Positions 17,130 through 62,160 of a stretch of 64,000 nucleotides of DNA are shown here, piece after piece. Each line of letters begins with the position of its first letter. Position 1 is the stretch's first letter. The position numbers and the translations under genes were made by a program. Below the pieces are notes generated by a model that saw only the letters and a program-made list of their open reading frames with translations, did no database searches and had not been told where the DNA came from. The stretch spans positions 64,790,001 to 64,854,000 of the forward strand of contig OZ260662.1 of NCBI GenBank assembly GCA_965285935.1. Reading direction: 5' to 3'. The DNA comes from Ophelia neglecta. Lineage: Eukaryota.

Positions 17130-17871
17130 TGCGGCTGATTGGCGATGGGACAAGTTCGAGCCGATACGAGCCGAGCGATTATCAAATGCAGGTATTTATC
17201 GGTTCGAGATTTCATTGGCTCTTAGCTTGTGCAAGGCAATTATGGCATAGACTGAACCCGCGCTTGTTATATAGCGGCTTTGCCTCTTCAAAACCACCAT
17301 AAACTTCCTATACCTTGTACCCGTATACCTATATCATTCTTACATATCAGTATATATAGATTATTTGTTAGTGTAGGGCGCGTTGAATGGCAAGCTTCCA
17401 AGCCACGACACATTCGAGGCACACTCCCCGCCACCGCTGTACTGTGCTCGCCACGGTCGGCGGTTTTCCCACACTCCCGCTGACCTGCAGGGACCGTCCT
17501 CAGTGGCGCTGAGCACGGACGCCATTCAAACCAAACATTCCCACAACGGACCACAACGCAAATTGTTCAGCGGACAATCACAAGGTGACGTCAATATCAC
17601 TGTTACCCGGCCTTGATTTCTTGCTGTTCAAAACAAGCTCTCCTTAGAGGAAGGACAGCCGTTTAGTGACATCCAAAAGAAATCACTGTTTTTCAATTTA
17701 TCTCTTGAACCAGAGGCCCACACACTTAAAGCGGAATCGTACATTTACCAGGATCCAGAAGTCAGCTGTGAGAGCCAATCTTACCCGAACTGGGATCCTA
17801 CCCGCAGATCATCAGTATATTGACTGATCGCTGACAGACCGATCTGTCAGATCACCAGCTCGGAACCCGAC
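17130..17871 (+). promoter_or_regulatory. HES-A promoter and long 5' leader
   Basis: ATTGG boxes near 17138 and 17214; TATA-like TATATAG 17268 and TATATATA 17351; CSL sites TTCCCACA 17466 and 17538; N-box CACAAG 17579 next to a perfect CRE TGACGTCA 17586; no ATG between 17390 and 17871. The TSS is not determinable. Confidence 0.55.
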
Positions 17872-17931
17872 ATGGATGATAGTGTCAGCGGAACCCTGAA
17901 GAAGGAGAAGTCGGCTGCAGAGATCCGTAAG
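17872..17931 (+). CDS. HES-A coding exon 1 (MDDSVSGTLKKEKSAAEIRK)
   Basis: gacATGG context; ends AAG|gtaggt donor at the conserved RK| position in the basic region. Confidence 0.88.
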
Positions 17932-20900
17932 GTAGGTGAACACGACAGATGCTATCGTTATTATTAGCAGTGATTTCAACAGCGCCCATGCTGGGTCGAG
18001 CAACAGGTTGAACCAACAGGTGGAAACATGAGATGATTTTATTGACTTGTACAACACCGGGCCACCAATATAATGACATTTTATGCTACAAAACACCCGA
18101 CACCTTTCATCTAAAAAAGGGGTGTGAAAACATGCATCATGGCAATGGATCTATCACAGTTTGCTTGCATTTATCTTGGAGGCATTTAAATGCTGCCAGG
18201 TGGTTAGCCAGACCATATGGAAGTCGGGCCGTCACAGGTGCTTCCCCGGACCTCTGCACCTCACTGCACCTGGTGGACGACCTTAAAGGCTTAAGCAAAA
18301 CATCAGACGAGGGACATGAATAGACCTTTGATGCCTGTTGATGGCAGAGATTTAAAGAGAAGCCCCATATTTAATACATTACAAGAAGAATTCATGCAAT
18401 TGATTCCTCCATCACATGACAGATTCAACGGAATCTGTACAAGCCTTTTGTTTGTACCGGAAAGGCAATATTCGGCCTTTTTATGGACATTAGGAGGCCC
18501 TTGTGAGAGCCCTTGAGGCATTTTAGCACCATCCATTGTACTTATTACAGATTCATCCTTTCACTTGTTCCTAGCTTATGTGGTTTTCGGTGGCAATTTT
18601 CGACTTAGATGTATAATTTACATTGACTCAGCTCAGTTCAAATACCTGTCACGACCAATAGGAGTTTGGATCCTAGTCCTCCCACAGTCAACCGTTGGGC
18701 TGTTTCCAACACGCACGGCGCTGTCAAACTGCGGCGAGGAAACTTTTTGATATAGCTTTGTTTGTCATCAAACAAAACTGTCAGCGCTAGGGTTTGGTGT
18801 AATAACCTGAGTATATGTCTGGCCTGCACGACTTCTCTAGTTGCCATTATGTAAAGGGGACGCTAGACAAAGCACCCCTTGTCTCTAACACGATATGACA
18901 GGTCACAATTAGAATGCATTTATCAGACTTTGATTTCAGCATTATATAGTTTGTGTGGCGCCGAGACACTATCCCAATGCTTGTTATTTTCATAAGAAAA
19001 TTGAATGCCAAATTCTTTCTCGTCTCTCTAATGAAGTTACACAGTAAAATGCCCAAACATAAAGTCAATTTGACGTTCCAACAACATCAACAAATGAACA
19101 CTTCAAAGTGCAACTGGGATGCCACCATTTTCAAATTCCCTGTTTGAATACGACGAACTCCCCTGACGGTCTTAATGCAATTATTTACAACCCATCCTCA
19201 TTAAATGCAATACACTTCTGGGAGTTTGTTAAAAGCTTCGGTCCATTAATAGAACCTTAAATCAGGATAATTGACAATGTTTTGTACTCCATTCCCCCTG
19301 TGAATCAATCATATTGTAACCTGTATCACGATGGCCGACTGGAGCCAGTAGTGACTGAAACAGATTTTTCACTTCTTGGAGATTGCGAAATATATCAACT
19401 TTGACCTTAGATATTGTACGTAAAGATATAGAAGATAATAGAAGTAATATAATTAACTAAACTGCCGTTGTTTGTTGAAAAAAAGTCAAAGGCAACAACA
19501 ACGTAAGCAATGATGTAGGCCTTTCTCTATTTTACCTTTTCTTTTTAAGTTAAGCCTATTATCATTATTAAATATATAAATCACGCCTATGCTTTCGTCC
19601 TTCCAGTCCAACAAACCATTGATGGAAAAAAGGCGTCGAGAGCGGATCAACAATTGCTTAGACCAACTCAAGTCCATTCTGATGGAAGTCACCAAAAAGG
19701 AGGTAAATTGAGCAAATATTGATATAATGGGGGAATAAAGGGATTCTTCAACGGTCAAGTAAACTGGGTGTGTAGTTTCAGGGCTAATGACCAGGGGCTA
19801 GAAGGCCAGACATTGTTGGCAAGTTTACCGTTCAGTTTGCGACATGGTGGTCTTCACATACTAGAAGGCTAAGTCCTTCTTGACTTTGGGCTATTTTCTC
19901 TGCCCACCAGAGCTAATGTATGTGGGCACATTGACAAATTTGCTAACTACATTTCTGTAGTTAGGAAAGTAGGGCTGAACACACAGTAGGCGGCGTTGTG
20001 AAGAGATGGGAAGGGTGGAAAATAAATATTCAATGAAAAGAGGGAGGTGGTGGTCAGGAGGTTATTGAGATGCTGGTCTTATTATCCACTGTGATCCCAT
20101 GTCGGGATCCCATAAAACCCACCGACATTAAATGGTCAAACGGTGTGACACAATTCACCACTGATTTAGCGAGCCTCCGTTGAGGCTGTAAATTAAAATA
20201 TCCTATTTCCTTTGTGGCCAATTCAATGGGTTAGTATCATCTCAAAGGTATTCCCATCCCTTTCATAGAATTTAATTGGCTTCATAATTAGACCATTTGT
20301 CATTCCATCTTCTTTTTCCACATTCAAATTGCCTTATCTTTAAAGTTGAATCTATTATAGAGTCCACGGCGGTGTCATTGCATACTTTTTATCTTGTCAT
20401 CGGTTAAGATTTATTAGAATTTCTTCAATAATATATACTAAATGTAAGATGTGCTATCGACTACGTAGATGATTTAGTGATGTGCGGTGTGGGGTCGGTG
20501 GACCGAGAGAGAAGGGCAATTATAACCGTGAACCCCCTTCCTCCACCTCCTTCCATTTTATTTATCAACGATCTCCTCCAGTTACAAAGTTACACTGAAC
20601 TCACCAGCCGAAGTGAAAAAAACAAAGTTTCTCACTTAGGACCTTCTTACAGGCCCACACCCTATGTAAGACCTAATCATCACCTCTTTGTTGGACACAT
20701 AAAGTATGTGTTTTAGATCAATCCAACCAAGAAGGTTTCTACAGCAATTGTTATCCCTCTCACACCTATAGAGCCCACGTTACAATACTTCCTATCTTGA
20801 GATGACGTGTAGTATTTCCTCTTCGCCTGCGTGCCGCACATGCATTATACAGAGACGGGTTTTCCACTGATGAGATCACCATATACTAAAAAACGTCCAC

Positions 20901-23900
20901 TCCCAGCATAAGGAAAACACATTTGTGGTTTGCTTTATGCACGTTCCATAGCCACAAATACCACGGCGCACTCTAGCATTTAATTTCTTACACTATTGGC
21001 CAACTCTAGCGTAGGGCAACGTTAAGCACAATTTATCCCAAATCCTTCTTTTTTAAAGTTGCTCCAATTAAACCCATGCATGCCAACATTTGTTCATACA
21101 GATCTGTTGTGCCTTACCCCGCACCCAGACGACAACCAAGTCACGTTTACTTCTCATTTAAAGATCCCTCGCTATATCCATTCTTTAACGTAACTCTGAG
21201 CCAGGTAGTTGTGTGTTTAACGACCGTAATGATGGATCTACTTCTTTTGGCTGTATTTTGATGATCCCTCACATTATGCCAGGGGCAAAGTCATCTTTAA
21301 GTCAGCTCTAAGTAATTCAATGGTGGATTCTGGCATTTTTACAAGCTGATGTTTGTTTCAGACTCAGTACTTAAGTGTTTTATTATCTGTAAATGGTGAA
21401 TATGTAATGCATAGCAGGACACCTCTGGAGTTCACTTGACGACGACTTATAGTAGAATGTGACAGGTCCCTGTTTGTCAATTGACCCTCTAAATCCCCAC
21501 TCTCTTAGTCTCTGTTACTGCTCTGAATGCTATGTAAAGTAGGCATTGTTTCAGCATATTGTTCCAGGGTTGAACCATCATCGCGCAATATTTTTACAAC
21601 AAATGGACACTTACAATGCTGGTTAAGTGGAAAAGGAAGGAAATATAAATCTACCATTTTGTGTTTGACAGGAAATTCTTTTGTCAACTTGTACATTGTT
21701 AGCTCCGACAGCACGTAATACTTGCAGTTCCCGTAGCGACATTCTTTTCTTAGCTGGTACTTTTATTCAAATAATGTCTGAACAAGAACCATATTCATTA
21801 CATGCACGCATATGTTATTACGCTTTTGACTCGAAGTCAGAGAGGACAATGGTCTGACCAGTTGTGAACAAGCCCTCTCCCTGGGATGTTTACGTCATGC
21901 CGCATTGGGTTGCGTCAAACGATTGATCATTGCGTCAGAGGGTGTCAACAAGCCCGATTAGGAAACTGCGCCCCAACGGCAAAGATCGGCGGTTAATATA
22001 CTCGCACGCTGTCAGAGAGCAGACGAGAGATGACTAGAGTACAATGACCGCACTGGAAAGTGGGCATAACCAGTCACGGGATCAAGTATGGCATGATTTA
22101 TAATCCCCGAATTCAAACCGTCCCCCACCTCTCACTGCTACAATTGTAGTTGATTTATATGCCTGGGAAAATACCCGGTTGCAAGTAGTTATTGTTGCTC
22201 ATGCATGCGCAATGCCCTCTCGTCGATACCTCGGCCTAGCCGATGTGAGGACCGGTCCGTCAAATTAGAGGGTCGGAACTGCCTCGTTAAATGTCTTTTA
22301 TTTTCACAAAACTCAATGGTTTGTGGTGCTTTGAAGCATATCTTGCATTAATGAATATATTCACGGGATATCCCCTTTTATATTGGCCCCACATTTATTC
22401 CGTGTGAACCACAATTGCATTGAGATTTCAAACCTCATTCCGTCTCAAATTGGATTTTAAATGGCTAGATTTGGTATTGTTCGGTTTTAATGAAATGCGC
22501 CACCACAAGGGAGCTAAAGATGTTCTTTTTACGACAAGGACATTCATTAGCGTCCAATTAAAGGCATCCCAACGCCATATCTTGTGTGTGGGAATTCTCA
22601 CGGAAAATCGGGCAAATATTCGAACCATATGGTTTTATCCTTCTTGAACGTTTTTGTCGAAGCGGGTGTTGGCTAGGCCTGAACGTACTGGGAAGTTATT
22701 GCACATGACCCAAGTAAATATCTATAATGAGATACTTGTTTGGCACGTAATTATGGACAAAATGGTATAGAAAATCACCCTGAACGATATATGTTTATTT
22801 AATAGGCCTACGGGCCTAAAGAGGAAATCAGATTTTGGGTCTATTCTGTGTGGTTTTCGGAGGTTTAAGAACGCACCGGGCATGAAGATCAGCAGCATCG
22901 CTGAAGCCAATGTTCAAGGCCTGGGAGAAAGATAGAAATGGCCCGAGGCTGCTGTTCTGGCAACTGTTTTTGTATTATAGCGCATTTAGGCAGTTACGTG
23001 GTTTGGGTGATATAACCAGAGATGTTCTTTGTTAAGACCCATAGCAGAATGTAACATTTGGTGCTAAGTAACTGTTAGCCGTGGGCTGCCGATATATTCC
23101 TCTTTCTCGCGCGCTATCTCTCTGTCTCGTCTGGCTGAGCAACCGAAGTGTTTCTATTGTTGCAAACCACGATCGCATACCGATGTACTCGGTCCAATGC
23201 TTCTCTCGCGAACTTGGAGAAGTTTCCCACGCTCCGAGCTTCTTTGATTTGTGTACTTTTTATTTTAAGATCTCCATTACTTTTAGTAAACATTGCTTTG
23301 AATGGTATGGTAAATAAAAGATTTCTCATTGTATTTTTGTCTGTAAGGGTGGTGTGATAAGTCCTGTTTAGAGTTTGCTGACGTACTTGGCCTGCTACAA
23401 AGACATGCAGGATGGTTGTGAAAGTGGCCAAGACCGTTCATTTCTAACTCAATAAACTACCGGGTAAAGAACTTTAGCGAAATCAAATTAAAATGTTAGA
23501 TTTGAAACGGTATTAACGGTGTCCTATCATGGCCCATGTACGATTGGGCCTGTTAAAATAAAGCTAGATAGTTACCTAACCTATTATATGGCATTGCGAG
23601 GTAGCTTTGAAAATTGATGACGCCAGTAATAATGGTGTAGCTTTACAGAACCACTTCAGTCTCAGGTACAATTCAGTCTACAGGTATTCAGCAAATTTGA
23701 TTAAAACTCAAGTGGCAAGGATTGGATGTTGCGTTTGCTACGTATGAGTGGTGAGAAACAGGTTTTCAAGTCCAAGGGAACGATTGTTGCCCTTGGAAGT
23801 AGCTGATTGATGGTATTATTAAGACTAAACACCTTGGCTAGCTCTTAGGGATTCATTCACCCACACCAATGGTTTCAAATTGGACCATTAAACAATGATG

Positions 23901-26229
23901 TCCGATTCTGCAATTCCTGTTATGAAATGCGCTGCCGAGCTCTCGCCTTTCATGCACAAATATGTGTCGTTTCTATGGGCGGAAATGAGCTAAGGACTTA
24001 GTATTTACTTTAATGGACATTCATTTGGCAGCGCAGAGTTCTTCTCCCCACCAACCATTTTTTTCCAGTCGTCTGCCACTGAAGGCCAAGCGCCTTATTT
24101 CTGGTTGCTGACAAACATATGTCAGCCATCTCACGCTCCAAGCCATTACATCACAGACACTATTTCCTCCCGATTTATGCTATTTTGCGTTGAACAATAA
24201 GCCACTTAATCTATTTCAGCTCGGAGGTCGAGTAGTAAGGACCTTTACTTAATATGGAAGGTGTCTAAGATTTTTCAACTGGGAACGCTATCAATTCAGC
24301 TATTGTATTAAATAAGAGTATGCTTTCTTGCACATTTCTTTTCAAATACCAAAAAGAAGAGGGTGATTCGTATCTAAATAATGATCAACAAATTCGGTCT
24401 CAAGGCATGAATAATGTTTTATTCAAACGTTTACTTGTACCGTGAAACGCATTGCATTTTTTGACACATTCTATTTTATAAGTTATGCCTCTAAATCAGT
24501 TTTTTGGGTCAGATACTCCTGGAAAACATTGGACACATATCATTCTAATTTGTTACTTAAAAATGTTCCCTTACATTATATGTGTTTTCTCTTTCTTTTC
24601 AGAGTTCATACTACTCTAAGCTGGAGAAGGCTGATATTCTGGAAATGACCGTGAAATATCTCAAGAACATGAAAAGGCAGCAATTGGCGGGTAAGAAAAA
24701 TCAGAACAATTCTCCTTTAACATAATCACAGCCAGAAAACTCACCCAATTACTCTCAACCACTGACAATGTCACTACCATTAGGCTTCAAAGTTTGAAAG
24801 CCACAAATCAAACTTTTGGGGCGAATAGTAATATAAAGACGTGAAATTCATCAGCCACAGCCATTAAGGAAAGTTTATTACAAAATTACTGAAACTGTTG
24901 TGTCGGTTACAAAGGAGTGCTAGCAACTGAAGTTAACAAATGGTTTCCAGCACGCCAGAGCCTAGTAAATCGATCATTTTCATATCTTGCTCTTGTTCTC
25001 GTTTGTGTTGATGCCTGTTTTACGAGGAGATGATGGATATGGGACGTTGGCTTGGTTTTTCAATCCGTTTATGTTGACCAGCCGTTTCTCCACCAATTCC
25101 TCTGTTTAAATAGATAATTTTCTTTGAGGTGTCTGGTTTGATGCCCGTTTTAATCAATTTGCACGAAAATTATTCTAAGGAGGCGCTGCCAAATTCCTGC
25201 AAAATACAATTTGATCAAAATCTCATAAACTGTCAGCCAACTGAGCTTTTTTATCTACAAAGTGCAGCTCGTAACTGGTTTCCATGTTTTTACCAGGTGT
25301 TGGATAATTATCACATTTCATGATATATGTTCATATCTTTCTTTACAGTCGCCATGGCTAATGATCCGTCGGTGGTCAGCAAGTACATAGCTGGATTCAA
25401 CGAATGTACTACAGAAGTGACAAAGTATCTTGGAGGCATGGACGGCCTTACAACTGAGATGAGAAGTCGGTTGATGGGACACTTGGCCGACTGTCTCCAG
25501 AGACAGTTCACCCTTAATCAGCCGTCCAACTGCAACCAGAACCTGGCAAGCGGGCCTCAGAGCCTGGGTGTACAGCTACCCACTGCCACTCAGCTGAATA
25601 GCTTACCCGGCTCGGGCGGAGTTTGTCTCCTCAGCCCTGGTAATGGCAACCCCCAGATACAAACCATCCCAGCCTCACCCATGCAGCTGGTACCTGCCAA
25701 ACTACCAAACGGAGACCTAGTATTCCTGCTGACCAATCCTTCGCAGGTTCTGGCCAACTCCACTGCCAATGGCGTGTCGGTAGTCTCTGCCTTGCAGACT
25801 ACCAATTCATGCGCCCAGCCGATAATCAACCTGAGCTCGGCTCAACAGAGCAATGTTATAAATACTTCAGGGATGACTACCGTTTCTACTTTGGGGCTTT
25901 CCGCTCTCTCTCCTTCCCCTGCCATCGCGGTTGCTCCTAACAGACAACAGGAGCAGAACAACAACGTCCTGCCAGCCGTCCTCATCCAAGCCACCGAAAC
26001 TTCTACCCCCACCACACCAATCAAGGAGGAGCAGACAGAATCTGCCAGCTCTTCCCCAGTGTCGTCTGCTTCCTCAGAGAGGGTAACACCTCAATCGTCA
26101 TACTCTCATGTCTCAGCCCCGCGTCCCCGGGAAATGGAGGAGGAGGAACAAGACCGGCTTAACAACAATAACAACATCCTCCATAATGAGGTTGCTCCGG
26201 ATGAAGGTCCAATGTGGAGACCGTGGTAG
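17872..26229 (+). CDS. HES: HES-A: Hairy/E(spl)-family bHLH-Orange-WRPW transcriptional repressor, join(17872..17931,19607..19702,24603..24690,25349..26229), 374 aa
   Basis: Spliced translation MDDSVSGTLKKEKSAAEIRK|SNKPLMEKRRRERINNCLDQLKSILMEVTKKE|SSYYSKLEKADILEMTVKYLKNMKRQQLA|V... followed by an Orange domain (KYIAGFNECTTEVTKYL...RLMGHLADCL), a hairy-type MQLVPAKLPNGDLVFLL motif and terminal WRPW-stop. All introns are GT..AG, phases 0/0/1. The 96-nt and 88-nt internal exons match the typical HES1-like gene structure. The basic region has the diagnostic Pro (HES, not Hey). An in-frame stop at 17821 fixes the start ATG. Exact orthology cannot be assigned here. Confidence 0.95.
19607..19702 (+). 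CDS. HES-A coding exon 2 (basic region + helix 1)
   Basis: ttccag| acceptor, 96 nt, SNKPLMEKRRRERINNCLDQLKSILMEVTKKE, GAG|gtaaat donor. Confidence 0.95.
24603..24690 (+). CDS. HES-A coding exon 3 (loop + helix 2)
   Basis: ttttcag| acceptor after a polypyrimidine tract, 88 nt, SSYYSKLEKADILEMTVKYLKNMKRQQLA+G, |gtaaga donor. Confidence 0.95.
25349..26229 (+). CDS. HES-A coding exon 4 (Orange domain, S/T/P/Q/N-rich region, WRPW)
   Basis: tttacag| acceptor, phase 1 compatible with exon 3; corresponds to track ORF 25327..26229; ends ...GPMWRPW*. Confidence 0.96.
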
Positions 26230-26710
26230 AGGTCAACATGGCAAAGATGCTAAATAAACTGTGTTATGTTGACATTTCAGAACTTGTTATGTTCACTTGA
26301 CTGCGAGGTGTGATACAATGTGTGATAGCTATTATTTTTTATACACTGTTTTTAGTTAACTCGGTATTTATAGGACAAACACATATGAAAGGGTCTCGTC
26401 ATATATCTTTGATATTGAGATTGACATTCGGAGTCCAACACCAAATGATCATTTCCTATATTTAATCCAAACTATTATATTTTATTAAAATGAATCTGAA
26501 TACATGGCTAACTCGCAAAAAAACCCTAAATTTTTAAATCATTATCCTTTCTAATAAACACCCATGTATTTCTAATTTTATGCTTAGCTTTAAGTAGCTT
26601 TATTTTGACAAATCTTTTTTTGTGTCATATGATTATCGTAGGCCTATGTTCAATTAATCTCATTGCAAATAAAATGTGCCCATTTCATCTGCTTCAGGGA
26701 ATAAACTATG
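26230..26710 (+). promoter_or_regulatory. HES-A 3' UTR with 2 K boxes, 2 Brd boxes and several AATAAA signals
   Basis: TGTGATA 26309 and 26321; AGCTTTA 26586 and 26596; AATAAA 26253, 26553, 26668, 26700. Confidence 0.6.
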
Positions 26711-29700
26711 AATTTATTACTTAATCACAGTCGTTCAAGTTATTTTAATTTTGTAGAAGAAAAAGTAGTATTAATGTTGAGCCTGCTGGCCTATAACTCG
26801 CTCAACAATAAAATATATCAAAGAAATCTTGAAATAAACCAACGAATTCTTTCGATTTCCTCATATTTAAAAGTAGGAGGCACTTTGGCAGATTATTGGA
26901 AGTAAACGAAACAGAAAAAACACTAAATAAATAGACATATCCTGAAACAAATGTCTGAATTAAACATCAACCAGCTCGATCTCTCCGGTTAGTTTCCGAG
27001 TTCGTGCCATACTCACTTCACGCATGCGTACACCTTGCTGCTGTTTGGGGAGCTGACATTAACCGTCCATATTCCCGTTGGAAATCAGTGCAGTAAACCA
27101 TTACTGTCTGAAGTTTGTTTGCATAATTAGAAGGTTACCATGTTTAATGAATTCCAACGAGAGTTTGATGTCGTTTAATTGTGCAAATTAAATCTAAAAG
27201 TAGATATTTCAATTCCCCATGAGATTCCCCTATGTAGAGAAGGTACCATTTTGAGGTTGGTTGCTTTCACAAACGATTGTAAATAGAGATGGGGGTTGGC
27301 AAGTATGTTATCCAAATGTAATCTTGATTTGTTCAGACTTAATCAAAAGAGAGTTTAAACCGTTTGATTACAGTAAGGATTATATCAAGGGCCCTTTTGA
27401 ACATTTTAAATGGAATATACAAAAGGTTAAATGATTTTAATTAGATGACCCTTTATCGGACGCCAAATAATATGTTTGAACATTCGTAAGATACCAACAC
27501 AGATAGCATTTAACTAGTAAAGTCAATATATACTTGTTCGCTCTCTTCTGCACACCTGAATCTACCCTGGTATACAGTTCTAAACTGCTTGTGAAAAACT
27601 GCGCGTTCACATATTTGAAATTGCAAAACGTTAACAAACTTTAAGTAGAGCTTAAGTTAGGCAGTCATTTTCACAAAACATTCAACGCGTCAAAAGTAAA
27701 TTTAGATACATTTGTTTCCTTTGGGTGTTTTTGCTATTGTTGCAGGGCTGATGACTCTGTGAGTTAAAAATAAGGTTTTTATATTCATGCGTCAACCAGT
27801 TTATTTGGTAACAACACATTGTTCGCAGTTAATGTGTTTCTGAATCCAGGTATTGCAAAAAGAATCTACCAAGTGGGTAGTATTATTTCATTTTCATGAT
27901 GACAGAAGAGAAAGTGATTGTGTGATTAGCCCATATGGTAGACAGGTATGTCTCCAATATCACTTTTGCTTTCACAAACAAAGATCCCCTGATACCAGAT
28001 ATTTTATTGCCCACCATTCAAGAGCAGGTATACAGCTCAAGTTGAATTGCCACAAATTTGGTTTTTTTAATCAAGGTTTTTGGTGCATTGTGTTACAAAC
28101 ACTTTCCTTGGAGTACAAACAATGCTCCCTGGTTAACATTACCTTAAGAAAATATAAAAAATGATCAGAAATATAAATGTAAGCTGCGTGTAAACTGTTC
28201 GTTTCACAATCGACTTAGCCGCCCATTCCCAGGTGAGTTTTCAATGTGATGTTGGTGGGTAGCGCCTTGAGTTTATTGGAGGCGGGTATCACAGCTGTGT
28301 TTGTGGACGTCAGTGGCTAATAGGATTTATTCACCAGTATGTTTACTAACACCCTTTAGGAGACCAGGTAATTTTCCTTTACAATGTATTTATTGCCCGC
28401 AGAATGCTCTCCGCCAAGACATGGTTTACGCCAAAGTAGGGAATTCATAAACAGCAATGTATGGTCCAACTCGTTCATTCTTTATTGCATGTATGGTTCT
28501 TTAAGTGCTGCTAGTGATATCCCCTATAGAACTAAACTATTCCTCAAAAGCAACCAACACTTAAAAGGGAAATAAGATAATGCAATATTTTACTCAATCG
28601 TGGTCAAGTCTTTTTCCCACGACCGAAATGCTTATAATTTTATGGTATGTTCATTCGAAAATGTTTTATTATCTAAATGATGCTATATGAAAACTTCAAA
28701 CCCACCGCCAAAGTGACAAATTATGTGTGTGTGTGATGAGGATGGCCTGACAATGAGCGATGGAAGGCCACACGGAGGATGATGGACCAAGCCTGAAACC
28801 CATTTCAACCCTCTTCGTGTCTTTTCTTCACCATCTGTAAAGTGAAACGCACTTTGAAGTGAGAAGAATTATATCAGCCATCAGGGTCAACACGCCCCTA
28901 TTCTATGTACTTCTCACTTATTGGTGAGAAATGACACTGCCATTATCCGCTAAATGCCTCTTTTCTATGGTTCTTCTTTGCAATTAATTAAAATGGTTCC
29001 CCATATGTATTCTGGAAACGCCTTCGACATCGTAGCAAGGCGCCGAAATGTTGATACAGTTGACGCCATATCTGCGAAACTTATGGTAGGATGAATTGTA
29101 TCTGCCACCCTTGTAACACTCCAAACGTCCCGTACATCATACTTCTCTGTCAAAAGTCCTACCGAAGATAATGAAATTTGTCAGAGTCGTCCTTCTCGGA
29201 ATTGAATCCCGTCGCGTTTAAAATGATTTTCTTCAAATGTCGTCTGCAACGAGACCGAGTTGATCTAAAGTTAACAGCTTGGGGCCTGGGACACGCGGGG
29301 GTTCTCGGCCTTCTCCGACCGTCCACGTCCCATAAACTATGTTTCTCGGTTGAACCTACTTTGACACTTTAGAGTCTAAAACCACCTTATACCACATCGA
29401 AAAGACTGATACTATTAGATTTTAGGAGAGTTTTAAAATATTTACATTTTTCAGGCTCGTTTAGAATCTTTTTCACAATATGCACATTGTTCGATTGTTT
29501 TAGAAGTATAAGTTTTGTTCAATCATTATTAAATAAACTACCTCTAACAAAGGATGTTGCACATTCAGTTTGCTGCCAATGTATTTGACGGCTACTCACG
29601 TCATTCCCGTTGTACTTGCAGTGTATAGTAAATTAAAGCATATTCCCATTGATGTACACAAATATAGTGCCACTTTGCTTCGAAACGTATGAACATTCTT

Positions 29701-59270: not shown

Positions 59271-59324
59271 ATGACAGACAAAGTCGTAGAAGCAGCGAAA
59301 ATGTCTTCTCAGCAACTCAGAAAG
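59271..59324 (+). CDS. HES-B coding exon 1
   Basis: acaATGa start about 97 nt after the TATA/Inr-predicted TSS; ends AAG|gtaaac at RK|. Confidence 0.9.
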
Positions 59325-61735
59325 GTAAACAAAAATTTCTTATTTATTTTATAAGTTATATACACGGTGTTTCACCCGGGCGAGTGTTGATATTGATGGA
59401 GCCGTGAGGACACCGTGTACTCCGTGCCACAGGTGCATGGCAAACACTGATTTGAGAGGACCTTAATGATGACAGTGGACACTTTGACTGTGATCTCAAT
59501 GTCCATTTGGGGCGGTATATTACTGAGATGCAGGACAACTGCCACGACTTGGAATCTTACAGATTATAACCGTGTTATGGTTATTTATCACTGCTTTACA
59601 CTTGCTGCACTTGTCCACCTGTTGCTCGGGTGCTGACACCTGTTGTCGGTTGACACGTGCAGTGATTGACTATGGCGCGTCTATCCTACACACTGCTCCA
59701 TGTCACATGGCAAGTGCCAAGAGCGAAGGACCATCATGTCAACAACTGTCCCGGATCATCGTATTATCACCTGTGTTACCCTGATATCTGGAGACGAGAC
59801 ATTAACCCTCCGATGTGTTAATGATATATTAGCCGTCCCTTCCAATGTCAACCATTTACTAGGAAACATCAACTCTCCTGTCCCCCATGATTAGTATACA
59901 TAAACCGATCTCTGTAAACTTCAAGTTAACAAATGATCGATGAAAATTTTAATTCATTTCATTCTTGTGAGTCAACTAATAAATATACCAATTTGATTTA
60001 TTTATTTATTTAGCATTAAATGGAGACGGTAACCATTTACTTATGAATCTATATTTAAATTTACAGATCAAGAAACCCATGATTGAGCGTCGCCGTCGTG
60101 AACGAATCAACGATTCTCTCAATCAGCTGAAAGCCTTGGTCTTAGATGCGATGAACAAAGAGGTAAGTTGTCAACTCTGTGAACGATGTTGGTAAAGTTT
60201 TAATCTAGAACAAGTGCCTGGCACTAGGGGAAGGGTTTCACAATATACAAGTCAGCTTGTAAATACCCCAGAATATCACTAAACCAAGCGAGCAGTGATC
60301 TCTGGGAAAGCTTCACGACACGCGCCTCATCACGCTCTGTCTACGGCAAATAGTCTTGGTTATACTCCAGTGACCTCACATAAAGGCACTTCCTCTCTCA
60401 AACTGGTGGAATGATTTTCTCACGGCTTCTCCACCCTTTCAGCAACTGATGGTTAACGGTTGCAGGGTCTTGTCCTTTGCAGCAAAGGCACGTGGCCCAG
60501 CCACCCAAGCGAGGTACAAGGCAAAGGGCAAAGTTTTACTGCAAAATTTAAACTCCCGACTTCACCACTGGAATGAAGCGTGGGTTGGGAACCTTTTGAA
60601 AGTAAATCACACGTCTCTCGCTCAAATTAGACGGTGAATGTCTAATACATTCAAATCAAAGCCCTGGTGAGGGCCCACGTGATAATGAAGTGCCATCCCA
60701 TAGTGGGTAGCTGATAATTACAAGAACCTGAACGACCATCTATTATAAAGACATCCTGTAGAGTTTTCACTTTCTTTTGTGATTGGTATAGCATCGTCTG
60801 ATTTATAACAACAACCACCGTTAAATGTGCACATTTTAAATATATCTTTTCTTTCTTCTCAGGAATCTCGTTACTCGAAAATGGAGAAAGCGGACATCCT
60901 CGAGATGACTGTAAAGCACCTGAAGAGCGCTCAGCGCCAGTCCCTGCTGATGTCTCCCGATGGAAACGGGCAAAATATGCTAGGAAAATACCGCACAGGA
61001 TTTGCCGAGTGTGCCCATGAGGTCGGACGCTATCTAGGCTCCGTGGATGGTCTTACACCAGAAGTGCGCATGCGTCTGATGGGTCACCTCTCAGGCTGCA
61101 TGCAGAGCGCAGAAACCCGCATTCCTGGTGGCGCTTGCGCAACATCAACTCTCTCTGGGTCCCCGGAAGCGAGGTCTTCTCTGCCGGCGGCCACTCAACT
61201 ATCTTCCCTTCCTGGTGCCAATGTACAGATTTTGTCGGTGAACACGAGTGATGCTTCCCAGACGGCGCGCGTTCCCAGTGTGAGCCCGATGCTGCCTGCC
61301 AGTCCGGTCAGCTCCCCAGAACTAACAATCACCTCTCCTATGATCGTGGTCAGTCCAAACTCGAACCAACAACCAAATGGTCTTCTGAAGGATGCCATCC
61401 CACTGTACTTTGCTTCCAGCAGTGTGTCAGTTGGCTCCTCTCGACCGGCTAGCAGCGCCCCACCCTCTCCACAATACTCATGCTCCTCCACAGACAGCTT
61501 CGGCCACTCTCCTGTCCACAGGCAGAGCCCCGAGCTCGCCCAAGACGCTCCTCAGTTCTACCGGGCACATTTCACCGCCATCTCTTCATCTCAGAGTCCT
61601 CCTTACGTTAGAGAGTACAAGCCAACCATCATCAGAGCCGAGGAACACAACAAAGCCAAGCGAGCTTTTGAAACTGACTCTTTTCCCGCCATGCAGTGTA
61701 AAGCCTTCAACCTACCAGTGTGGAGGCCTTGGTGA
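59271..61735 (+). CDS. HES: HES-B: Hairy/E(spl)-family bHLH-Orange-WRPW transcriptional repressor, join(59271..59324,60067..60162,60863..61735), 340 aa
   Basis: Spliced translation MTDKVVEAAKMSSQQLRK|IKKPMIERRRRERINDSLNQLKALVLDAMNKE|ESRYSKMEKADILEMTVKHLK..., Orange domain (KYRTGFAECAHEVGRYL...RLMGHLSGCM), terminal WRPW-stop. Introns are GT..AG, both phase 0, at the same positions as HES-A introns 1 and 2. Confidence 0.95.
60067..60162 (+). CDS. HES-B coding exon 2 (basic region + helix 1)
   Basis: tttacag| acceptor, 96 nt, GAG|gtaagt donor. Confidence 0.95.
60863..61735 (+). CDS. HES-B coding exon 3 (helix 2, Orange, WRPW)
   Basis: cttttctttcttctcag| acceptor; open frame through to ...PVWRPW* (track ORF 60827..61735). 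Confidence 0.96.
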   Translation, partial: ESRYSKMEKADILEMTVKHLKSAQRQSLLMSPDGNGQNMLGKYRTGFAECAHEVGRYLGSVDGLTPEVRMRLMGHLSGCMQSAETRIPGGACATSTLSGSPEARSSLPAATQLSSLPGANVQILSVNTSDASQTARVPSVSPMLPASPVSSPELTITSPMIVVSPNSNQQPNGLLKDAIPLYFASSSVSVGSSRPASSAPPSPQYSCSSTDSFGHSPVHRQSPELAQDAPQFYRAHFTAISSSQSPPYVREYKPTIIRAEEHNKAKRAFETDSFPAMQCKAFNLPVWRPW

Positions 61736-62160
61736 CGTGTCTCATCAGAGGAACTTTACTCCCCCAAAAAACTCTGCCTGCCTTGTTCTCATGGTGCATA
61801 AAGACTGTGTCCATTTTAAATTTCTATGGACGACGTTCTCGGGCTAGAACATTCAATTCATCAAATACATTATATTACAATGTCCTTTTTTAATCATGTA
61901 TATATATTCCCGAATTGCATTCCAGTTAAGTTTAACACTTGCATTTACTTTGCATAATTATGGTACTTAGTTCAAAAAGTCTCCGCTGTGTGGAGTTTAA
62001 AGCATTCCATTTGATAATGTCTTCCAAAACGAGGCTTCCTCTTTCAGTGGTTTATCTAATAAATGGAGGACCTCATTCGACATTCTCAAAGATTAAGCAT
62101 TCTGTGATGAATATTTTTAATTTTATAATGACTTAATAAAGCATTCCATTGAAACTTATT
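61736..62160 (+). promoter_or_regulatory. HES-B 3' UTR with GY box, K box and miR-1-type seed sites
   Basis: GTCTTCCA 62019-62026; CTGTGAT 62102-62108; CATTCCA 62003 and 62142; AATAAA 62058 and 62135. Confidence 0.6.

Follow-up and report, generated by a model that had tools for sequence, protein, structure and literature searches.

Among microRNA seed sites, the K, Brd and GY boxes are the founding examples; the literature examined describes them on Notch targets in insects only. The closest described system is that of the Drosophila E(spl)-C and Bearded genes, where these motifs occur together with clustered bHLH-Orange-WRPW genes and upstream Su(H)-type sites; the bHLH genes of the arthropod E(spl) complex are intronless. 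The motifs read TGTGAT (K), AGCTTTA (Brd) and GTCTTCC (GY) (PMC3261227), and background on the K-box microRNA families is given in PMC4238352. MicroRNAs are known to target Hes genes in several lineages, since fly hairy carries a validated functional miR-7 site (PMC1043860) and vertebrate Hes1/her6 a miR-9-5p site (PMC3834235). In annelids, the genes to be compared are Platynereis Hes7 and Capitella 223641. The main text of the annelid Hes paper does not contain the term 'UTR' (PMC4172395), nor that of the Platynereis Notch paper the name 'Hes7' (PMC5356439), and a search of non-subscription literature gave no report of K or Brd boxes in lophotrochozoan Hes genes.

Here we describe HES-A, a bHLH-Orange-WRPW gene located in a window of 64,000 nucleotides (the whole stretch of DNA that was analysed; Table 1). 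Its four exons are joined by GT-AG boundaries into a predicted protein of 374 aa, which carries all the Hes-family marks tested (bHLH, Orange domain and terminal WRPW) and ends at a TAG stop codon (26227-26229). The end of exon 1 corresponds to the AAEIRK/SNKP junction of the full-length relative P0004, whose junction sequences are the same as those of HES-A. Two of the three introns lie within the bHLH and one before the Orange domain, the pattern described for Pdu-Hes1-10 (PMC4172395). An earlier, sequence-only reading of this DNA had taken HES-A for an intron-containing gene of the hairy type, which the in-frame model with three introns bears out. HES-A is the first of five genes forming a tandem Hes cluster over ~135 kb, and no Hes gene was found in the 40 kb upstream of the window. 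Its paralog HES-B is without the third intron that is typical of annelid Hes genes. The contigs from three sequencing runs are genomic and without joints, and none of the 40 differences listed (113 in total) falls inside the HES-A UTR.

Table 1. Positions in the window of the HES-A and HES-B features, with putative regulatory and processing motifs.
Feature	Position	Strand	Remarks
Two Su(H)-type sites upstream of HES-A	17466..17545	-	Same orientation, 72 nt apart; consensus of PMC3261227
HES-A exon 1	17872..17931	+	Predicted coding; GT donor; in-frame join to the 374-aa ORF ending in WRPW
HES-A exon 2	19607..19702	+	Basic region and helix 1; HLH family match
HES-A exon 3	24603..24690	+	Loop and helix 2; AG/GT ends, in frame
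HES-A exon 4, coding part	25349..26229	+	Orange domain, MQLVPAKLP motif, WRPW, stop
AATAAA	26253..26258	+	24 nt past the stop; putative signal
K box 1	26309..26315	+	TGTGATA; putative miR-2 family target, 7mer-A1; pair also present in ortholog L047
K box 2	26321..26327	+	TGTGATA; putative miR-2 family target, 7mer-A1; 12 nt past box 1
AATAAA between K and Brd doublets	26553..26558	+	Putative signal
Brd box 1	26585..26592	+	TAGCTTTA then A; predicted 8mer site for miR-79 (miR-9-3p)
Brd box 2	26595..26602	+	TAGCTTTA; predicted miR-79 site; 10 nt past box 1
Two AATAAA (26668, 26700)	26668..26705	+	After all boxes; likely end region of the full UTR
Three further AATAAA (26807, 26833, 26926)	26807..26931	+	Missing from the sequence-only reading
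HES-B, paralog of HES-A	59271..61736	+	Three coding exons, WRPW
GY box of HES-B	62019..62025	+	GTCTTCC; after the stop; predicted miR-7 site; miR-7 hairpins in genome
K box of HES-B	62102..62108	+	CTGTGAT, 7mer-m8; after the stop, past the first HES-B AATAAA (62058)

Among the best 120 of 613 protein matches, the closest named relatives of HES-A are from Paralvinella, Capitella and Platynereis (Hes7). HES-A was also grouped with the orthogroup of Platynereis Hes7 and Capitella 223641 with a support of 97 in both of two quick trees, which were built without bootstrap from 32 and 27 hand-picked rows, E(spl) and Hey being absent. Because both the closest named relatives and this grouping are annelid, the host is likely an annelid. 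The same best 120 of 613 matches include hairy, deadpan, HES1 and HES4 but no named arthropod E(spl), so that HES-A looks hairy-like at the sequence level.

The genome of the host contains hairpins whose seeds match both kinds of box, as had been presumed for miR-2 and miR-79. A miR-71 hairpin followed by six miR-2-type hairpins lies on C5, and a seventh miR-2-type hairpin on C1; two of these seven are over the Rfam cut-off, and the first nine bases are common to all. The single miR-9/79 hairpin, on C8, is over the cut-off as well. The seeds pair with the K boxes at positions 1-7 and with the Brd boxes at positions 2-9 or further, the 3' arm of miR-9/79 pairing with both Brd boxes from either possible start, the A or the next U. 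Pairing beyond the seed was borderline or at chance level for the first K box and the first Brd box (0.045 and 0.125). The seed families of the Drosophila E(spl)-C/Bearded system are hence also present here. To our knowledge miR-2 is confined to protostomes, and the protostome host proposed earlier agrees with the miR-2 cluster as it does with the annelid relatives. There are also five miR-7-type hairpins, two of them over the Rfam cut-off; this family appears expanded, with a cluster of four hairpins that differ in their 3' halves (L160, G000:C2:25.019-25.020 Mb; L159) and one more on C8.

After the HES-A stop codon, the K and Brd motifs each form a close doublet, and on re-check the coordinates previously given for both K boxes, both Brd boxes and four AATAAA hexamers were all exact. 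AGCTTTA, at 26586 and 26596, lies inside TAGCTTTA at 26585 and 26595. Both K boxes read GTGTGATA, with matches at positions 2-7 and A1 but not at position 8; preceded by G instead of C, they are 7mer-A1 sites and not 8mers. The absent C is no objection, since the fly K-box microRNA miR-11 has almost identical affinities for 7mer-A1 and 7mer-m8 sites (PMC12905440). When the 476-nt region after the stop was shuffled 20,000 times with dinucleotides preserved, at least two K boxes arose in 0.0019 of the shuffles and at least two Brd boxes in 0.0005, and both doublets together in none. Apart from the HES-A pairs, the 908 kb of host strand sequence that flank the two Hes clusters contain no two copies of either 7-mer less than about 50 nt apart. 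TGTGATA-N5-TGTGATA has 77 genome-wide matches, those in tandem arrays counted, against 43 for the reversed control, and TAGCTTTA-N2-TAGCTTTA has three (control, 5). The UTR is somewhat repeat-rich (10 close-repeated 7-mers against 3.1 expected, P 0.013), and all four boxes have a predicted seed accessibility lower than the local median (percentiles 0.17, 0.07, 0.21 and 0.46). HES-A has no GY box, and no miR-9-5p seed match in 1,500 nt. Another word, TGACATT, occurs twice in the 476-nt region; it was dropped, being absent from 1,100 nt of the ortholog described below. Tandem arrays of the K-box word were observed at G000:C8:5563781-5564419 (15 doublet matches) and C12:65923018-65923072 (4); these are possibly simple repeats or, if transcribed, miR-2 sponge-like elements.

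Scans of genome-contig and viral-contig collections gave no HES-A relatives, and a scan of metagenome contigs gave two loci from 50 candidate stretches. One of them (L048) ends without WRPW and yielded no UTR. The other (L047) has 40% protein identity to HES-A and was grouped with it at a support of 97. Its TGTGATA boxes lie at +950 (an 8mer with C; CTGTGATA at +949), +1049 and +1061, with TGTGAT 6-mers at +538 and +652, and a single Brd 8mer (AGCTTTAA at +934) stands upstream of the K doublet. Compared with HES-A, the L047 boxes are ~1 kb from the stop and in a different order, and the two UTRs gave no usable global alignment, their common 7-mers being at chance level (48 against 50.7 +/- 8.3 expected). 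Nevertheless, the L047 boxes at +1049 and +1061 have the same 12-nt spacing as in HES-A, around a different spacer sequence, and TGTGATA is the only 7-mer that occurs at least twice in both UTRs, among 25 words repeated in that of HES-A. A shared pair of the same spacing arose in 2/10,000 shuffles of the ortholog and 1/3,000 double shuffles, in a test that covers one ortholog and a 1,100-nt stretch set after inspection. As spacers and position-8 bases differ between the two genes, only the seed match has been kept. The expectation that the boxes would be conserved above neighbouring 7-mers thus holds for the K doublet in this one ortholog.

Boxes were also observed on other Hes/Hey genes of the host besides HES-B (Table 1). 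Hes-E carries a K box (twice as 6-mer) and a miR-7 7mer-A1 match; in the Hey ortholog (L040, ending in YRPW; G000:C12:41.416 Mb), a GY box, a Brd 8mer and a K 6-mer precede the first AATAAA; and L043 combines a K 8mer with a Brd box. We compared 13 Hes/Hey units with 44 Forkhead/bHLH control units, leaving out recent tandem duplicates (15/28 Hes loci and 16/60 control loci) and L046, which has an intron after Orange. The controls were drawn from the best 30 of 54 Forkhead and the best 30 of 86 HLH matches, and some of their flanks may be introns. With HES-A omitted, at least two box classes were present within 600 nt in 4/12 Hes/Hey units and 0/44 controls (P 0.0013; decoy seeds, P 0.0006). 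With the motifs of PMC3261227, again omitting HES-A, the proportions were 3/12 and 0/44 in 600 nt (P 0.008), 3/12 and 1/44 in 1000 nt (P 0.028), and 1/12 and 0/44 in 400 nt, where the difference was not significant (P 0.21). The K 6-mer alone never distinguished Hes/Hey units significantly from controls, and 6/13 Hes/Hey units are boxless. On the reverse strand, single matches were found in 5-6 of the 13 units, never two classes (600 nt). The family-wide signal is modest. A second Hes array (G000:C2:11.43-11.56 Mb; L139-L152) holds 19 copies that end in WRPW and fall into four types; a K box, ~43 nt past the stop, is present in just one type (the 7-mer in 3/4 copies).

Two Su(H)-type sites were found upstream of both HES-A and HES-B (0.16 expected each in 600 nt), which suggests Notch input to the two genes. 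Those of HES-A are on the same strand, and no inverted pair is present upstream of the gene. Within HES-A intron 2 (window 22587-22602), two Su(H)-type sites stand back to back in opposite orientation.

HES-A resembles the Drosophila E(spl)-C/Bearded system in its box motifs, clustering, protein type and upstream Su(H)-type sites. It differs from E(spl)-C in its three introns, hairy/Hes1-like character and likely annelid host, as well as in the very tight doublets, the lack of an inverted Su(H) pair and the putative function of the boxes. A search for Bearded-class proteins (PF15952) gave no match anywhere, controls included. The contrast with flies drawn by the sequence-only reading is weaker than stated, since fly hairy, with its miR-7 site, is already a hairy-type gene controlled via one of the same seed families (PMC1043860). 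HES-B, Hes-E and Hey have miR-7 seed matches, whereas HES-A, unlike fly hairy, has K and Brd boxes instead of GY. Vertebrate Hes1/her6 is, like HES-A, a Hes1-type gene with a match to the miR-9 hairpin (PMC3834235), but there the 5p arm is involved and here the 3p arm (miR-79).

On the basis of these sequence features, we consider it quite probable that the boxes of the likely HES-A 3' UTR are seed sites through which the miR-2 family and miR-79 lower HES-A mRNA and protein. Repression by the two microRNAs is likely because K and Brd motifs are known from fly Notch targets and a distantly related gene shares the K doublet; the doublets are likely real miR-2 and miR-79 sites, new to this phylum. 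Both kinds of box would be carried in the HES-A mRNA, and the miR-2 family and miR-79, presumably co-expressed with HES-A, would bind them and repress the gene. The purpose would probably be to limit the lifetime of a Notch-responsive repressor and keep its domain sharp, as for the fly E(spl) genes, while the doublets may offer more chance of capture and a backup against mutation.

According to one alternative, which we consider doubtful but worth weighing, only the K boxes are real miR-2 sites, and the Brd pair either is a local 10-nt micro-duplication or lies in the U-rich element past the 26553 cleavage site, outside the mRNA. The pair is indeed an 8-of-10 direct repeat, and L047 has no Brd doublet; yet the repeat match spans exactly the miR-79 seed complement, L047 does carry a Brd 8mer, and AGCTTTA, found in Hey and L043, occurs in 0/44 controls within 600 nt. 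As for the position of the pair, it starts 27 nt past the 26553 hexamer, from which cleavage is expected just upstream of the Brd boxes. With 26553 as the main signal, the mRNA would therefore end short of the Brd boxes, and truncation of HES-A at the nearest AATAAA that is 100 nt or more past the stop leaves only the K boxes. The main HES-A transcript likely ends past the Brd boxes.

The sequence-only reading had proposed that alternative polyadenylation yields three isoforms (no boxes, K only, K and Brd) of stepwise microRNA sensitivity, which now appears unlikely. That reading gave the signals and boxes in their correct order, and HES-A has five AATAAA in a fixed 600 nt, the highest number among 57 3' flanks (four in 476 nt against 0.67 expected, P 0.003, the region being drawn to end on AATAAA). 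Given this richness and the U- or GU-rich sequence downstream of 26253 and 26553, some use of these two signals is possible. However, the 700 nt of AT-rich DNA downstream of the stop contain seven AATAAA, not four, and a hexamer within ~30 nt of the stop is seen in 6/57 flanks. In L047, the first AATAAA is at +1093, after all boxes, with no AATAAA or ATTAAA earlier, and the Brd box precedes the K doublet. Since its boxes are neither preceded nor separated by a canonical signal, L047 does not share the stepwise layout, and a conserved three-step isoform switch is unlikely.

There is little to recommend the idea that the reader of TGTGATA-N5-TGTGATA is not miR-2 but another factor, such as an RNA-binding protein with two domains or a DNA-binding factor dependent on fixed spacing. 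The consensus core of GATA-type factors is WGATAR, which fits only one of the four doublet boxes. Moreover, the conserved 7-mer is exactly a miR-2 7mer-A1 site, L047 also has a separate full 8mer, and there is no clear genome-wide excess of the paired word after allowing for arrays (77 against 43 is the comparison before collapsing). Such a reader would nonetheless fit the unpaired position 8 in 4/4 doublet boxes, and a 12-nt spacing that is kept across species although spacings of 13 nt or less are disfavoured in human data (PMC1874663). Finally, single K 6-mers are common enough (11/44 controls) to raise the possibility that the four motifs all arose by chance in AT-rich DNA, but this is very improbable in view of the shuffles and the 908-kb survey, and is strongly disfavoured by the recurrence of the K doublet in L047.

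If the doublets are microRNA sites, as we prefer, their spacing does not favour the cooperative repression for which they had been thought suited. In human data, the best spacing is 13-35 nt between seed starts, and sites 13 nt or less apart are under-represented and give similar or reduced knockdown (PMC1874663). Elsewhere, cooperative sites are said to have starts separated by about 15-100 nt (PMC9650897) or to lie 8 to about 60 nt from each other (PMC5101187), the latter figure counting the gap in our reading, so that the HES-A gaps would be 5 and 3 nt. As spacings of 12 and 10 nt fall short of the range reported as cooperative, we infer redundancy or better capture, and the HES-A doublets are most likely redundant overlapping landing sites and not cooperative pairs. 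K doublets are not unique to Hes genes. In a tandem Forkhead cluster (G000:C12:45.19-45.28 Mb; L099-L104, L107), K boxes lie 30-44 nt past the stop, as a doublet 10 nt apart in 3/7 copies and as one box in the other four. The presence of at least one box in 7/7 copies, with one lost in four, is consistent with redundancy.

PMC4575448 reports E(spl) proteins only in myriapods, crustaceans and insects, and describes the arthropod bHLH-Orange families as all equally related to the HES of other animals. It has also been suggested, with doubt, that the bilaterian ancestor possessed a distinct E(spl)-like Hes (PMC4172395), in which case the K boxes of a hairy-like annelid gene and those of fly E(spl) would be parallel gains. 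The sequence-only reading had suggested that the box code may predate the insect E(spl) complex; parallel gain is possible because the UTRs are unalignable and HES-A looks hairy-like. More tentatively, the K/Brd/GY code could be an ancestral protostome feature of Hes/Hey Notch targets, kept via site turnover in annelids and arthropods, with the 12-nt K doublet as a conserved working unit that breaks the mammalian spacing rule; we regard this as rather unlikely, and likewise give deep homology of the box code only a minor chance.

Boxes on annelid Hes/Hey genes, with one element conserved across unalignable UTRs, turn the choice between an inherited protostome circuit and repeated invention into a testable question, and what is at stake is the microRNA damping of Notch output. 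They also provide concrete candidate annelid targets of miR-2 and miR-79, and a natural setting in which to test how close together paired sites can lie. If miR-2 and miR-79 do repress HES-A, a fly regulatory code would be extended to worms.
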